Of a stretch of DNA of 64,000 nt, positions 3,684 to 44,036 are shown piece after piece. Position numbers and translations under genes: made by a program. Below the pieces are notes generated by a model that did not search any database, was not told the origin of the DNA, and saw nothing but the letters and a program-made list of their open reading frames with translations. Source of the stretch: Dictyostelium discoideum (lineage: Eukaryota). Position 1 is the stretch's first letter; every line of letters starts with the position of its first letter. The stretch lies in the NCBI GenBank assembly GCA_000004695.1, contig CM000151.3, forward strand, positions 576,001 to 640,000, read 5' to 3'.

Positions 3684-3871
3684 GTGAAATAAAATATAAA
3701 ATTTTTTTTTTTTTTTAACTTTATCTGATTCTGTCTTTCAAAAAAAAAAAATTGAAAAAAAAAAAAAAATTGACAAAAAAAAAAATTATGAAAAATAAAA
3801 ATAAAAAAATCCCATAATTTGAATTAATCATATAAAAATATTTAAATGTTGTTTGTTGAATTATAAAAATC

Positions 3872-4025
3872 ATTCCAAATTCAACGATGTTTAGAGTCAC
3901 TTGGATCTTGTGTCTCAGATAAGATAAAAGTGCTAAATCGATTGATATACCGAAAGTAACAGAAGATTATCTGTCAGTTTGTTATATAATGACATTATTG
4001 CTAGTAGGTCTTCTGATATCACCCT
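3872..4025 (+). ncRNA. Candidate small ncRNA gene. A GC-richer island of about 150 nt follows a DUSE-like motif.
   Basis: TCCCATAA at 3810-3817 lies about 60-70 nt upstream of a roughly 50% GC island (3885-4025) in otherwise more than 85% AT intergenic DNA. CUGA is near the 3' end (4013-4016) and there is a degenerate C-box-like CGATGT. The island ends in a T-rich run. Confidence 0.3.
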
Positions 4026-4128
4026 TTATTTTAAATAAAAAAAACATATAATTTTTAAATTTAATTTTTTAAAAATAAAAAATATTCTTAACAATACATT
4101 TTATTTTAAAAAAAATGGTATTAATTTG

Positions 4129-5320: not shown

Positions 5321-6875
5321 TAATCCAAAAAAGAAATCAATTAATGATAGACAACAATGGCCAATTGGTAAACCAAAATATGTTGAATTTAAATTATGTA
5401 AAGAGAATAGAGATACGATGGATACATTGAGTATGATGTCAAGAATATTAAGAAATAGTGAAAAGAATTTCTCATTTGCAGGTACAAAAGATAAGAGAGG
5501 TATAACTACACAAAGGGTTACCGTTTGGAAAGTTACACCAGAGAAATTGGTTGAATTGAATAATAGGATCTCAACACTTTCACCACCAGTTCGTATTGGT
5601 GAGTATAGATTCGTAGAGAATCATTTAAGGTTGGGTGATTTATCAGGTAACAGATTCTCTATTGTAATTAGAGAGATTCAAGGCGCCGATGACCAATTGA
5701 TAACAGAATCCATTGAAACTTTCAAGAAAACTGGATTCATTAATTATTTTGGTATGCAAAGATTTGGTACTGGTGCAATTCCAACCTATGAGATTGGCAT
5801 TGCAATGATTCAAGGTAATTGGGAGAAAGCTGCAAAGTTAATACTAGATCCACGTGATGGTGAACGTGATGACGCAACCAAAGCCAGACTCTATTATAAA
5901 GAAACTGGCGATATTAAAAAAACACTCACAATGTTGCCACGTGGTTTAAACGCAGAGAGAAAGCTATTACTCGGTTTAAAGAATGGTCAGTCCTCTTATC
6001 AAGATGCTTTCTACAGTATACCACGTACACTTCGTATGCTCTATACTCATAGTTATCAATCTTTAATTTGGAATTTAATGGCAACAAAAAGAATTGAATT
6101 ATTTGGTTTTAATAAACCAATCGTTGGTGATTTAGTTATAATTTCTGAAGAATCAATTGATAATAAAAAAAATGAAGAAGAATCAAAAGATAATAACAAT
6201 AATAGTAATGATGGTGAAGAAGAAATTGGTGGTGATGAAACTGAAATTGAAGAGAAAAAAGTTATAAAAGTTGATTATGTTACAGAAGATGATGTAAAGA
6301 ATGATCGTTATACAATTCAACAAGTTGTTTTACCATTAATTGGTGGTAGTACAATTTTACCAAAGAATATTATTGGTGAATTGTATGTTGAAGAATTAGC
6401 AAAGAGTAATATTCAACCATCACAATTTATTAGTAAAAATCGTGCAATCGATCTTAGAGGTGGTTATCGTAAATTATTGGAAACTGCCAAAGATACCACC
6501 TATAAGATTTTCAATTACGATGATTTCACAATTCCATTAGCATTATCTGATATTGAAATTCTTAAAGGCTCTCAAGAACCAGTCGATGTTCCTAATGGTA
6601 AACATAAAGCAGTTAGAGTTTGTTTCAATTTACCAAGTTCAACTTATGCAACAATGGCATATCGTGAAATTTTAAAATCATCAAGTGATATGACTTCTCA
6701 AATGAATATGATCAATAAGAATGTTAATTCAAATAATAAAAGAACTTTAGTAGATATTAATAATAATAATAATAATAATGATAAAAATGATGCAATATCA
6801 TCTGAAACTAAAGAAAAGGTTAATTCTGGTCAAATTGAAGAACAACCATTAAAAAAACAAAATACAAATCAATAA
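5321..6875 (+). CDS. pus7: Pus7 (TruD family), exon 2 with the catalytic domain.
   Basis: AG acceptor at 5319-5320, phase 2. TruD motifs are present: FKLCKENRDTMDTLS, FAGTKDKRGITTQ, GMQRFGTGAIPTYEIG. It is in frame with ORF 5418..6875. Confidence 0.75.
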
Positions 6876-40263: not shown

Positions 40264-40303
<40 letters not shown>

Positions 40304-40462
40304 CATTAAAAAATTGAGAAAATAATGAAAATTATTTAAGAATGTTGGGAATTATTTTAATCACATTCCCATAATAATGTGAGTGTAATCGACCTATATT
40401 AATCAAAAAACTATTTTGAATTTAAACTTCAGAAACACAAAAAAAAGCATTATTTTTTTTAA

Positions 40463-40620
40463 AAACAAACCAAATCCAAATGGATAGTCGCAATCACTTT
40501 ATTTAGTGCGAGACGTGTCCATACTTCGATTATTAGCAACCGCAAAAAAACAAAATTTGTTGGTTGAGGCATATAGGGTATTCCTCAACCAACTCCCCCA
40601 TTTTAATTTAAAGAAAAAAA
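40463..40620 (+). ncRNA. Copy 1 of a diverged noncoding repeat pair; candidate ncRNA gene preceded by a DUSE-like motif.
   Basis: TCCCATAA at 40367-40374. Conserved block CAAACC..ATCCAAATGGATAGTCGCAATCACTTTATTTAGTGCGAGACGTGTCCATACTTCGA, then ...CAACTCCCCCATTTTAATTTAAAGAAAAAAA. Confidence 0.35.
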
Positions 40621-40733
40621 AAAAAAATAAATAAAATAAAATAAAAATTTATAAATTATAAATAAAAGGTTTATTAATTATATTTTTTTGAATATTTTAT
40701 TTTTTATTTTTAATTTTTATTTTAATTTTATTA

Positions 40734-41076
40734 TTAAGGAAAACATTTTAAAAAATTAATATTACCATTATTGTTATTATTATTATTATTATTAAATTTG
40801 AAAATTGTTAAATTTGGTAATGTTTTATATAGATTTATTATAAAACAAATAAAGATTATTAATGTTATTACATAAAATGAGTTTTTATTTATTGGTAAAT
40901 ATTTTTCAAATAAATCAATATTAATTAAAGCTCCAATGATAATTCCATTAAAGTGACCGATAATTGAAGCATTTTTAATCATAAAGCAAGAATATATTAA
41001 ACATAAAAAAGGATAGTAGGATATTATTGAATTTGTTATTAATTTAATATATATTACTAATAACCCAAAACATACA
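40734..41076 (-). CDS. Rhomboid-like protein, exon 2.
   Basis: An AG acceptor at 41077 joins in phase to give GYSCVCFGLLV. The His-box helix is ASIIGHFNGIIIGAL. Confidence 0.45.
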
Positions 41077-41173
41077 CTAATTTAATAATTTTGGTTATAT
41101 ATATAAATACAAATTAATTAATTATTATTATTATTATTATAATTATTTTTTCAATTTAAAATTATTTATTTAC

Positions 41174-41613
41174 CAAGAATAGCCAATATAATGATTATCT
41201 AAATATGATTCAATCATTTTTATTTTATTATTATTTTTATTATTATTTTTTAAATTAATTATTTTTGAAATATAAATTTCAAAAAATAATAATAAATTTG
41301 TAAAAATTATTAAAATAATATTACATTTAAAGTAGTAGTAGGAGCCTTTAATAATTTCAATTTTACTTGTATTCCATATTGATATAGAATTTAATATTAA
41401 ATGAATTATATTTGAATGTGAAAATGTTGAAGAAATTACTCTCCAATATTGTCCTCCAATTATTTCCTTATAATTAAATGATACCTTTTCTGTACTAATA
41501 TCATAAGCGAAATGATTAAACCATATTAAAACATTTATAATTAAAATTATTGATGTTATTGGACATTGTTTAATTTCAATAAAAAATTCATTATTTAATA
41601 AAACTTCATTCAT
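41174..41613 (-). CDS. Rhomboid-like intramembrane protein, exon 1.
   Basis: YWRVISSTFSHSNIIHLILNSISIW matches the rhomboid TM2 region. It ends in ...HYIGYS. GTAAAT donor at 41173 on the minus strand. Confidence 0.5.
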
Positions 41614-41646
41614 TATTTTAATACAATTTTGATTTAATTTAAATTA

Positions 41647-41679
<33 letters not shown>

Positions 41680-41922
41680 TGTTTGTGTGTGTATGTGTTT
41701 TTTTATTTTTTATTTAATTTAAATATATATTTAATTTAATTTAATTTATTTATTTATTTATTTATTTATTGTTTTTAATTAATTTAATTTTTTTTTTTTC
41801 TTATTATTTTCTTTTTTTTTTTATTTTTATTTTTTTTTATTTTCAAATTTAAATATTCCCATAACAATTAAATGGTGATTAATATTATTTAAAAGCAAAT
41901 TAATTTATATATAACCTTTAGA

Positions 41923-42115
41923 ATCAAACCCTCATCTCAATGAATAGTCGCCATCACTTTATTTAGTGCAAGACATATTCATACTTCGAAATATTTTCAA
42001 AACTAAAAAACTTTGTTGTTGTTTGGTGATGTTGTTGAAAAAGGGAGCTCTTTTTATTTTTACACATCTCAAACTCAACTCCCTTTTAAAATAAAGAAAA
42101 AAAACCTGATGCTAA
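41923..42115 (+). ncRNA. Copy 2 of the diverged noncoding repeat pair; candidate ncRNA gene preceded by a DUSE-like motif.
   Basis: TCCCATAA at 41857-41864, 66 nt upstream. CAAACCCTCATCTCAATGAATAGTCGCCATCACTTTATTTAGTGCAAGACATATTCATACTTCGA ... CAACTCCCTTTTAAAATAAAGAAAAAAAA. Confidence 0.35.
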
Positions 42116-42266
42116 AATAAAATGGAAAATATTAAAATTTGTAAATGAACATCTTTTATATTTTTTTTACATTTTATTTATTTCATATATTTTTTTTTGG
42201 GAATTTTACAAAAATGTTCTTTTATTTCATATATATTTTTCTATATAATATTTTAATTATATCAAA

Positions 42267-42339
42267 GCCCGTTTAGCAAAGTTGGAATTGCGGCAGCCTT
42301 CTAAGCTGCAGGTCGTGGGATCGAGACCCACAATGGGTG
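42267..42339 (+). tRNA. tRNA-Arg, anticodon UCU.
   Basis: Cloverleaf folds by hand. Acceptor GCCCGTT/AATGGGT, D stem GCAA/TTGC, anticodon stem GCAGC/GCTGC, loop CTTCTAA, T stem GTGGG/CCCAC, discriminator G. A T9 terminator follows directly. Confidence 0.8.
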
Positions 42340-42399: not shown

Positions 42400-44036
42400 A
42401 GATGAAGAAATTCATATTAATAAAATAATCTCATGGTTTATGAATTCTCCCGCAAATTCTGAATCACCAACTCTCAATACCAATTCCATTGAAAATAACA
42501 CATCAACCATCCATTCACGTGCAAAAATACCTTTGATGTGTTATGATAGATCATTAAAACCATTAAAAGAAGGTGGTTGGGGTATGTGGAATATACAATT
42601 ACGACAAGTTGCTCAAAAGATTTGGATATACAACAGATTTTTACAAATGCATAGATCTGCAAACAATTCAATATACATGATAAGTTGGATGGATCAAATC
42701 ATCAACAAATCAATCTCTTCTCCATACCTTATAAAAATCAAAAAAGAATGGGAAAACTATGCAACTCAAATTGGACATCTAAAAGATAAAGTTCAAATCC
42801 TACAACCAATATTAACAAAAAACCAACCCTCTCAAACATTAAACACAAATAATATTTCACTACCACCAACACTCAAAGAAATCTACTCGACAATACTAAA
42901 CAATCACCAATGCAAATCAAAAGACTATATTGGCAAGAAATATTCAGATCTACTTCTTACTTTGCACCAACAATCAATACAACTATTATGGAAATACACA
43001 TACGACCAACTTTTTGTCAAAATTCAAAAATTAAAAGATCCAAAAGGCCGTGATACAATGCAAAGATTCCATGCTAGATGTCTTCCGATTAATCATCTAC
43101 ACAACAAAGTTTGCCCCATTTGCAACAATGAAATGAATAATGATCCCTATGGTCATTTGTTTTTCAATTGTCAGCACACAATCAACTTCATAAACCACGA
43201 CAAATTAAAATATTTTATATATAAAAATTGCAATGGAAACAAAAACTGGTCACTAACAAAAAACCAAACAACAAAATTATACACACTCATTTATAAACCA
43301 CAAACAAACAACAAAGCATTTAAACCAGATCCAACTATCAATATTAATTTTCATTTTGCAGAAAACGCACAATATAAAAAATACAGGTTCAACTGGAATT
43401 ATATAAACACAAATCTTGATCTAGTCAGAACACATGCATATTGGAACATAATCTCATTAGTTATTCACCAAATATGGATATGGTTATGCAAATCATTATT
43501 TGACATCAATATAACTCAATCAATTGATAATTGGAACAACCAAATAAACAACACAACACTAGATTATGATATATTAAAATCAAAATGGCACAAGCTAATA
43601 AGATTGGAATATTCAAGAACTTTATCAAACTTTAACCAATACTCAATTAAAAACAACCTCACAAAAACTCAAAAAGAAACCCAATGGTCCGAAACCATCA
43701 AAAAATTTAAAAAAGAATGGAGCATAAACACTAATGAACATACTATTTTAAATTCACAAAAACTAAAAAACCTAAAATAAATAAATAAAAATAACATACT
43801 AATTGTATACTACAATAGTTTATTTATATCAAAAAAAAAAAAAAAAAAAAATATTTATTCGACAAAATCAAAAAACAACACCCAAATCTAATCTCAATTT
43901 TTGTAGTTCTCTTTTGATGCAGAGTTTAAAGACCAAGCATTTGCAACAATTTTAGCAATCAACGAATCCAAAAGAAGAGACGAGACACCAATACAAGAGC
44001 TCAACAACTGAACCAACCATTTTTTTAAAAAAAAAA
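42400..44036 (+). mobile_element. 5'-truncated non-LTR retrotransposon fragment of TRE3 type (tRNA-gene-targeted retroelement). It carries the C-terminal Cys/His-rich part of ORF2, a 3' UTR and an oligo(A) tail.
   Basis: 446-aa ORF 42440..43780 has no RT motifs but has CPICNNEMNNDPYGHLFFNCQHT. Oligo(A) runs at 43838-43860 and 44017-44036. It sits immediately downstream of a tRNA gene in the same orientation. Its base composition is visibly less AT-rich than the flanks. Confidence 0.55.

Follow-up and report, generated by a model that had tools for sequence, protein, structure and literature searches.

Genes of several small RNAs in Dictyostelium are preceded by DUSE, the Dictyostelium upstream sequence element, with the motif [AT]CCCA[AT]AA, about 63 nt before the start of transcription (PMC3188802, PMC7919456). 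It is used also by the genes of the small nuclear RNAs (snRNAs) U1, U2, U4 and U5, and closely related members of the snRNA and Class I gene families are found in nearby pairs (PMC7919456). Class I RNAs are 42-65 nt long, with a short 5'/3' stem and an 11-nt motif, CCUUACAGCAA, by the 5' stem (PMC3188802, PMC7919456). I consider here two related elements, copies A and B, that fit this description in part. They lie on the forward strand of 64,000 nt of D. discoideum DNA (assembly GCA_000004695.1, contig CM000151.3, positions 576,001 to 640,000; hereafter the window, numbered from its first letter), on either side of a rhomboid-family gene. I argue that they are probably two paralogous, independently promoted genes of one family of small, structured noncoding RNA (ncRNA), about 165-170 nt in length. 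The RNA is best described as an orphan with two predicted hairpins, snRNA-like and DUSE-driven, which most likely assembles into a ribonucleoprotein.

What the copies have in common with the DUSE-driven genes of Dictyostelium (U1, U2, U4, U5, U6 and the Class I and Class II RNAs) is promoter and setting. The same motif lies about 63 nt from the predicted start, the two copies form a nearby pair, and both are intergenic islands of GC, a trait of DUSE-driven small RNA genes (28-41% GC, in intergenic surroundings of 1-14%). The RNA itself differs from the DUSE-driven snRNAs, having no match in Rfam to U1, U2, U4, U5 or U6. It differs as well from the Class I RNAs: at a predicted 164-169 nt it is three times their size, it does not contain CCUUACAGCAA, and it forms no terminal stem in the folds, so that membership in Class I or II is rejected. 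Rfam 15, searched with the window and seven orthologous loci at gathering thresholds and with the locus at E<=10, gave no family that matches the copies; all that came back was tRNAs and a spurious match to SNORD107 (19 bits, against a threshold of 50). An earlier reading made from the letters of the window (the sequence-only reading) had taken the copies to be a paralogous pair of ncRNA genes of an unrecognised class and had named a covariance-model search of Rfam as a check. That search, run over 40300-42250, found no match to Rfam 15 at E<=10, and together with synteny in seven genomes and covariation within the RNA it bears the proposal out. "Unrecognised" is here relative to Rfam 15 and to the literature searched.

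The relationship between the copies is evident within the window. A repeat finder pairs 40467-40529 with 41927-41989 as a direct, ungapped repeat, 83% identical and about 1.46 kb apart, and within the 64 kb there are exactly two occurrences of the 26-mer ATAGTCGCNATCACTTTATTTAGTGC, where none is expected. Pairwise alignment follows the similarity from DUSE through CTTYAGAA, past an insertion of 29 nt in copy A and into this core, after which it picks up again at TTTGTTG and then at the tail, CAACTCCC..TTTTAA..AAAG; the tail CAACTCCC..TTTTAA..AAAGAAAA is found in copy A and copy B alike. The sequence-only reading had recognized most of this: a shared core of about 70 nt, a shared tail, and direct orientation around a minus-strand rhomboid gene, both copies indeed lying on the plus strand and flanking 40734-41613. 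Its boundaries need revision. The insertion, thought to be about 32 nt, occupies 40438-40466. The blocks were begun at 40463 and 41923, slightly off for the first copy; the predicted starts are A40431 (copy A) and A41920 (copy B). The end it gave, 42115, is too far downstream, for the conserved unit stops at the 3' flank motif, at about 40613 in copy A and about 42096 in copy B; the match of copy B to the covariance model described below covers 41920-42096.

The gene upstream of copy A, on the same strand, encodes NIP7, and the exact NIP7 protein was used to reach seven syntenic loci (L002-L008). Each has two copies, making 14 in all. The loci come from D. discoideum (L006), two genomes labelled "D. 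cf. discoideum" (L007, L008), D. citrinum (L004), a close relative of it (L005), D. dimigraforme (L003) and D. firmibasis (L002). L006 is 100% identical to the window across both copies. The order NIP7, copy A, rhomboid (minus strand), copy B is preserved in all seven of these genomes of the D. discoideum complex, with the copies at the same relative positions, and therefore the duplication is older than these species. Both paralogs have been under purifying selection since before the complex split. Alignment of the 14 copies gives the following identities among orthologs:

DUSE: 0.93-0.95
Core (5' hairpin and ACUUCGA): 0.84-0.85
AAAYUUUG tract: 0.78-0.80
Tail and 3' flank: 0.60-0.81
Spacer from DUSE to start: 0.57-0.63
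Leader: 0.42-0.45
Linker: 0.38-0.39
Downstream DNA: 0.39-0.40

In the same alignment CATACTTYG is invariant or nearly so, TTTGTTG is near-invariant within a segment conserved at 78-80%, and the tail and flank of copy A are 81% identical among A orthologs, as against 40% farther downstream. The parts of the two genes, with predicted and putative elements given as such, are these:

~40431-40599, plus strand: copy A, predicted body of the ncRNA gene
40366-40375, plus strand: copy A DUSE, TTCCCATAAT, with core TCCCATAA at 40367-40374; putative promoter, near-invariant in the 14 copies
40393-40404, plus strand: copy A A/T motif CTATATTAATCA, at about -38 to -27; possible TATA-like element
40427-40435, plus strand: copy A CTTCAGAAA, with the predicted start A40431, 64 nt after the T of TCCCATAA
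40438-40466, plus strand: copy A leader insertion, 29 nt relative to copy B by alignment, with a run of T8 and a predicted A-U hairpin by folding
40480-40522, plus strand: copy A 5' hairpin, AUGGAUA-GUC-(GC)-CACU-[UUAUUU]-AGUG-(GC)-GAC-g-UGUCCAU, from folding and covariation
40523-40529, plus strand: copy A single-stranded ACUUCGA, directly 3' of the 5' hairpin, from the alignment
40530-40551, plus strand: copy A A-rich linker of variable length, 38-39% identical among orthologs
40552-40563, plus strand: copy A Sm-site-like AAAAUUUGUUGG, its end overlapping the foot of the 3' hairpin; putative Sm site
40559-40593, plus strand: copy A 3' hairpin, GUUGGUUGAGG / CCUCAACCAAC, 11 bp and an apical mini-stem, from folds and covariation
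40594-40627, plus strand: copy A C-rich tail UCCCCC, flank TTTTAATTTAAAG (40601-40613) and A-run; putative 3'-end signal
~41920-42083, plus strand: copy B, predicted body of the ncRNA gene
41856-41865, plus strand: copy B DUSE, TTCCCATAAC, with core at 41857-41864, from the alignment
41883-41895, plus strand: copy B TATTATTTAAAAG, at about -37 to -25; possible TATA-like element
41916-41924, plus strand: copy B CTTTAGAAT, with the predicted start A41920, 63 nt after the T of TCCCATAA
41940-41982, plus strand: copy B 5' hairpin, AUGAAUA-GUC...CACU-[UUAUUU]-AGUG...GAC-a-UAUUCAU, from folding and covariation
41983-41989, plus strand: copy B conserved ACUUCGA, from the alignment
42005-42018, plus strand: copy B Sm-site-like AAAAAACUUUGUUG, from the alignment; putative Sm site
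42015-42079, plus strand: copy B long 3' hairpin, GUUG..GUUUGG.GAUGU ... ACAUC.UCAAAC.CAAC, from folds and covariation
42080-42104, plus strand: copy B tail UCCC, flank TTTTAAAATAAAG (42084-42096, containing AATAAA) and A-run, from the alignment
40734-41613, minus strand: rhomboid-family gene DDB_G0271574, with an intron, between copies A and B; context, outside the RNA

The presence of the 8-mer TCCCATAA means little in itself. It is found three times in the window, at 40367, 41857 and 3810, where 3.75 occurrences are expected, so its significance must come from position and conservation. It stands at the aligned position in copies A and B and in 14 of 14 orthologous and paralogous copies from seven genomes, in keeping with the DUSE that the sequence-only reading had placed at 40367 and 41857. 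Each copy has DUSE, TTCCCATAA, 63-64 nt upstream of the conserved sequence CTTYAGAAW; the latter is kept in 13 of the 14 copies, its A lying 63-64 nt past the first T of TCCCATAA. DUSE is 93-95% identical, as against 29-64% in adjacent bases. Between the two, an A/T block (TATTAATCA / TATTTAAAAG) aligns in most copies, and ATTTAAAAG is kept in five of the seven B copies, those named as without it being L002B and L004B/L005B. Judged by the spacing from DUSE and the conserved motif, A40431 and A41920 are the likely starts.

The second line of evidence is structure. Single-sequence folding produces the same two hairpins in copies A and B, and the full predicted RNAs fold with z of -4.3 (copy A) and -1.7 (copy B). 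RNAalifold predicts 21 pairs from the 14 sequences. On this structure 97.8% of cells are paired, and sliding the 3' partners by 1-3 columns lowers the share to 28.6-38.0%. Six pairs show changes on both sides, in 23 cells altogether. The covariation score was matched by none of 500 shuffles, a test that overstates significance because the sequences are closely related; the slid controls and the compensations between A and B do not depend on it.

These compensations are easily seen in the 5' hairpin, where all seven A copies have AUGGA/UCCAU and all seven B copies AUGAA/UUCAU, such that columns 63/100 are G-C in every A copy and A-U in every B copy. At columns 69/92 C-G has changed to U-A; two of the B copies read GUU/AAC in place of GUC/GAC. 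Between A and B the identity of the 3' hairpin is as low as 33%, yet a strong hairpin begins at the G of UUUG in 14 of 14 copies, built from GUUGGUUGAGG/CCUCAACCAAC in A copies, GUUAGUUUGG/CCAAACUAAC in copy B of D. firmibasis and GGUUAG/CUAACC in copy B of L008, with compensatory changes across copies at four of the seven basal pairs. At six pairs there are G.U or U.G cells, compatible with the plus strand only.

The leader, upstream of these hairpins, is variable. The insertion of copy A is a palindrome of an A-run and a T-run, A8-GCAUUA-U8 in D. discoideum, and six of the seven A copies have its equivalent; copy A of D. firmibasis and all B copies do not. Copy B of D. firmibasis has a different insertion in its leader, of about 16 nt.

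I propose that DUSE, perhaps with the A/T box near -30, would recruit the small-RNA transcription machinery, with initiation at the A of AGAAW. The conserved flank TTTTAAWWTAAAG and the A-run after it would direct formation of the 3' end, a few nucleotides past the 3' hairpin; the flanks TTTTAATTTAAAG of copy A and TTTTAAAATAAAG of copy B, each with its A-run, are candidates for the 3'-end signal. In vertebrates the 3' box of snRNA genes is GTTTN0-3AAARNNAGA, which I take the flank TTTTAAWWTAAAG to resemble, as I take it to resemble AAUAAA. The RNA would then act in trans, as the scaffold of a particle like a small nuclear ribonucleoprotein (snRNP). An Sm or Sm-like ring would sit on the U-tract that lies between the hairpins, AAAYUUUG(UUGG), the 3' hairpin would shield the end of the RNA, and partner RNA or protein may be recognized by three near-invariant elements: AAUCYCAAUG and CAUACUUCGA, on either side of the foot of the 5' hairpin, and the loop CACUUUAUUUAGUG.

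Has such an RNA been seen before? The copies could be the genes of D1/Dd8, a historic orphan capped snRNA, or else candidates from the screen of Larsson et al. in 2008, and this is the alternative that survives best: I think it a plausible identity, though less likely than not. D1 is said to have been named by Wise & Weiner in 1981 and Dd8 by Kaneda et al. in 1983, who reportedly described Dd8 as having a trimethylguanosine (TMG) cap and as "not homologous to any other sequenced small nuclear RNA". The Larsson et al. screen reportedly sought ncRNA candidates by GC islands and DUSE. D1/Dd8 is listed as "found only in D. discoideum", not in D. purpureum (Sucgang 2011, supplement Table S3a). That matches an orphan snRNA-like RNA without a detected homolog at the locus in D. 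purpureum, and the predicted first base, A, and the snRNA-like architecture fit as well. A screen combining composition, DUSE and clustering by similarity, of the type of Larsson 2008, would be expected to catch two GC islands that are 83% identical. On the other side, Rfam 15 contains the DdR families of Dictyostelium and none of them matches, and the likeness to D1/Dd8 is one of description only; the core sequence strings, like the gene ID DDB_G0271574, had no match in the literature searched. The loci are plausible Dd8 genes.

A different doubt concerns the polymerase and, with it, the extent of the RNA. DUSE drives genes of RNA polymerase III (Pol III) too (PMC7919456). If the copies were transcribed by Pol III in the manner of U6 or Class I genes, the product would be an RNA of about 75 nt, consisting of the core only and ending at the first T-run, with the 3' hairpin excluded. 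The A/T box at about -30 suits this idea, as does the TTTT that directly follows the core in copy B of D. discoideum (41993-41996), and CTTCGAA is, by my own comparison, loosely like a B box. The distribution of T-runs does not suit it. Runs of T4-T9 occur within the predicted transcript in 14 of 14 copies, at inconsistent positions. Six of the seven A copies have a run of T5-T9 (one copy T4 and T6 only) 10-30 nt past the predicted start, where it would terminate a Pol III transcript before the conserved core, while several B copies have T5-T9 runs in the linker, at the U-tract or within the covarying 3' hairpin. No two copies have their first T-run past the core at the same place. Pol III genes of type 3 have oligo-T directly after the RNA and no strong internal T-runs; here, in several copies, the 3' hairpin is followed by no T-run or merely by TTT. 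A local Pol III terminator is available for comparison, the T9 run that ends the tRNA-Arg gene downstream of copy B. Since the conserved body holds T-runs, a Pol III transcript could not contain the conserved downstream half, and the conservation and compensation of the 3' hairpin and its flank would go unexplained if they were not transcribed. I consider the short Pol III RNA unlikely. From the placement of the T-runs I infer instead that these are snRNA-type genes most likely transcribed by RNA polymerase II (Pol II), like the DUSE-using genes of U1, U2, U4 and U5.

If the RNA belongs with the snRNAs, then its nearest relatives in layout are those of the Sm class. The succession of 5' stem-loop, single-stranded U-tract and 3' stem-loop is known from U5 and from lineage-restricted orphans such as the SmY RNAs of nematodes. 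Like them, copies A and B have two hairpins split by an A/U-rich strand that ends in AAUUUGUUGG, a C-rich 3' tail, a snRNA-type upstream promoter and a small, lineage-restricted gene family. They differ in having a 5' leader of 20-50 nt and a U-tract that lies partly inside the 3' stem, and their Sm site is a putative one: AAAAUUUGUUGG / AACUUUGUUG is conserved between the hairpins, but the GUUG in it pairs and covaries with CAAC. The invariant loop of U5 is GCCUUUUAC, as opposed to CACUUUAUUUAGUG in these copies. By inspection, neither copy has AUACUUACCU at its 5' end, GUAGUA, the GCCUUUUAC loop or a sequence to pair with U6.

One could go further and suppose a lineage-restricted Sm-class snRNP dedicated to a task in RNA processing for which Dictyostelium is not known to have an RNA component, with an equivalent of U7 in the 3' cleavage of histone pre-mRNA as the prime candidate. 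Davila Lopez & Samuelsson in 2008 reportedly found SLBP and histone stem-loops in Dictyostelium but identified no U7. The AAUUUGU of the U-tract agrees with the Sm site of U7, AAUUUGUCUAG, over its first 7 nt (7 of 11 positions), and as in U7 a long 3' hairpin and short tail follow directly after the tract. The U1 Sm site AAUUUGUGG, however, fits the tract as well as that of U7 does. U7 is about 60 nt in length, compared to about 165 nt here, and the copies have a large 5' hairpin, which does not fit; the segment just 5' of their U-tract is the least conserved, and there is no match to RF00066. The copies do not belong to the U7 family as defined by these features, and a U7-equivalent function is a long shot. 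More remote still is a template RNA of the telomerase type: directly after a stable hairpin comes CUCCC(CC), which could template terminal repeats of AG(1-8). What specifically speaks for these two ideas is limited to the AAUUUGU tract, the layout of the hairpins and the C-run.

Other known classes can be set aside. Rfam's DdR and small nucleolar RNA models found no match in copies A or B. The copies are not box C/D RNAs, which have a C box (RUGAUGA), a D box (CUGA) and a terminal stem: AUGRAUA lies inside a Watson-Crick stem, it reads AUGGAUA in A copies, and no conserved CUGA is near the 3' end. Nor are they box H/ACA RNAs, in which an H box (ANANNA) separates two hairpins with pseudouridylation pockets and ACA follows the second: they have no ACA 3 nt from a conserved end and, in A copies, a 3' hairpin of 11 uninterrupted base pairs with no pocket. 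A K-turn like that of U4 (CAAUGA) is rejected because its GA falls within Watson-Crick pairs and is GG in A copies. As to the A and B boxes of tRNA genes, there is a loose resemblance at TTCGA only.

It might be thought that the copies act as DNA or as parts of their neighbors' transcripts. Copy A lies about 330 nt past the NIP7 stop codon, on the same strand, and could belong to the NIP7 3' untranslated region or terminator; copy B, on the strand opposite to the rhomboid gene and about 300 nt upstream of its start, could be a promoter or insulator of that gene. These contexts are not equivalent, yet the two copies have the same architecture, each including its own DUSE at a fixed spacing. Long homopolymer tracts of A and T separate NIP7 from copy A, and covariation at the level of RNA, with G.U pairs, is unexpected of elements that work as DNA. 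Such cis roles seem highly improbable.

Least credible is the fallback of the sequence-only reading, that the copies are remnants of a mobile element, the long terminal repeats or other termini of a decayed insertion around the rhomboid gene: the repeats are direct and about 1.46 kb apart, with a tRNA gene and a probable tRNA-targeted retroelement open reading frame (ORF) just downstream, but a covariance model finds just two copies per genome in the 64-kb window and about 145 kb of orthologous loci, two metagenome scans gave no match, the interior holds an intron-bearing host gene, which runs on the opposite strand, and lacks element ORFs, seven genomes have both copies fixed in the same places, and their divergence is mosaic and structure-preserving rather than a uniform decay. 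The model, R1, was built from the 14 copies and run on the window and all loci (about 210 kb), where it found no copy beyond these 14. The metagenomes gave 0 matches to a strict pattern of the core and at least 120 to a loose one, none of them above chance by R1 (best 22 bits, E = 0.46).

That the copies might encode protein is rejected, upholding the noncoding status claimed for them. The 42-aa "ORFs" of both copies start with GTG and share only the part that is conserved in nucleotides. Within the 5' hairpin, a micro-ORF of eight codons, AUG...UAG, has D replaced by N at the very base whose partner compensates, and it is destroyed in copy B of D. dimigraforme; linker lengths differ by amounts that are not multiples of 3.

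Several observations weigh against two genes of one Pol II-transcribed, snRNA-like RNA. A conserved A/T box at -30 and an element upstream of it are what Pol III type-3 promoters classically have, so Pol II is not proven. At the base of the 3' hairpin, the GUUG/CAAC pairs covary and are overlapped by the Sm-like tract, and therefore there is no clean single-stranded site of the form RAU(3-6)GR. The ends of the transcript are predictions, both genes being known here from genomic sequence. The 14 sequences count as only about 2.4 effective sequences. Copy B appears relaxed in some species (L003:12923-13087; L004:12754-12920; L005:12643-12819): in D. dimigraforme the apical half of its 5' hairpin is replaced by GCGACCAUAUGGUGCC, and in D. 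citrinum and its relative it has lost the CAACUCCC tail and, from the 3' hairpin, the 3' strand of its basal stem. Finally, R1 with its filters off found no copy at the NIP7 loci of D. purpureum or P. violaceum, a result for these loci only, so the known depth of conservation is shallow.

At those two loci (L001 in D. purpureum, L129 in P. violaceum) NIP7 lies between L36e and CKS, in the order L36e(-), NIP7(+), CKS, with CKS on the plus strand in D. purpureum and on the minus strand in P. violaceum. In the D. discoideum complex copy A, the rhomboid gene and copy B come after NIP7, and this local rearrangement coincides with the sole place where the RNA genes are seen. Walking instead by synteny from the CLN5-like neighbor added D. 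purpureum as the only further species. There (L001, GL871339.1, 6290-6490, minus strand) the DUSE TTCCCATAAC is convergent with the CLN5-like gene, the positional counterpart of copy B. Its context, TTCCCATAACAATT, is identical to copy B over 14 nt, and it is followed by TTTTAGAAC and AATGAATAGT, both common to copy B, with a spacing of 31 nt in place of 63 and an unrelated body. In that body is a piece of the Class I motif, UUACAGCA, and at its end GGAUCCUGU precedes runs of T5 and T7. The covariance model has no match in 6290-6490, and the fold is no better than those of shuffled sequences (z = +1.1). The site may be an ortholog that has diverged strongly, or else a separate gene with a DUSE.

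The third TCCCATAA of the window, at 3810 on the plus strand, is followed about 60 nt on by a GC-richer island (about 3871-4019) that folds into two hairpins (minimum free energy -36.9 kcal/mol, z = -3.2); Rfam, at E<=10, gave no match to it. The 3' flank of the island, CACCC TTTATTTTAAATAAAAAAAAC (4020-4046), resembles those of copies A and B. The stretch 3810-4046 is probably one more ncRNA gene that is driven by DUSE and unannotated, so that structured GC islands follow each of the three plus-strand TCCCATAA sites in the window.

As to the neighboring genes, homologs of the rhomboid DDB_G0271574 were found in the D. discoideum complex only, and its models range from 109 to 261 aa across the assemblies of the window and L002-L008. 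The splice GGCTATTCTTG|GTAAAT...AAATTAG|T links GYS with CVCFG and retains the motif GHFNGIIIG, which suggests that several of the deposited models are truncated or mis-spliced. About 180 nt 3' of copy B lies tRNA-Arg(TCT) (42267-42339, plus strand), which terminates in the T9 run mentioned above; five of the other loci also conserve this tRNA downstream of copy B, its distance varying. An ORF of 446 aa with no Pfam domain begins 101 nt past it (42440-43780, plus strand), a spacing that I take to be reminiscent of the ORF of a TRE3-type tRNA-targeted retroelement.

The inventory of small RNAs in Dictyostelium, comprising snRNAs, small nucleolar RNAs and the Class I and II RNAs, is regarded as fairly complete. 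If the RNA described here is not Dd8/D1, then it would be a new snRNA-like family for which the support from comparison is unusually clear: seven genomes share a pair of ancient paralogs, there are compensatory changes, and motifs are defined in the promoter and the 3' flank. Such a family would be amenable to knock-out and pull-down. If it is Dd8/D1, then a 40-year-old orphan gains its gene structure, a fold supported by covariation, a phylogenetic range, and conserved single-stranded elements as candidate sites of interaction. In either case the flank TTTTAAWWTAAAG is a candidate for the 3'-end signal of snRNA-type genes in Dictyostelium, and for an RNA with no match in Rfam 15 the alignment could serve as the seed of a family.

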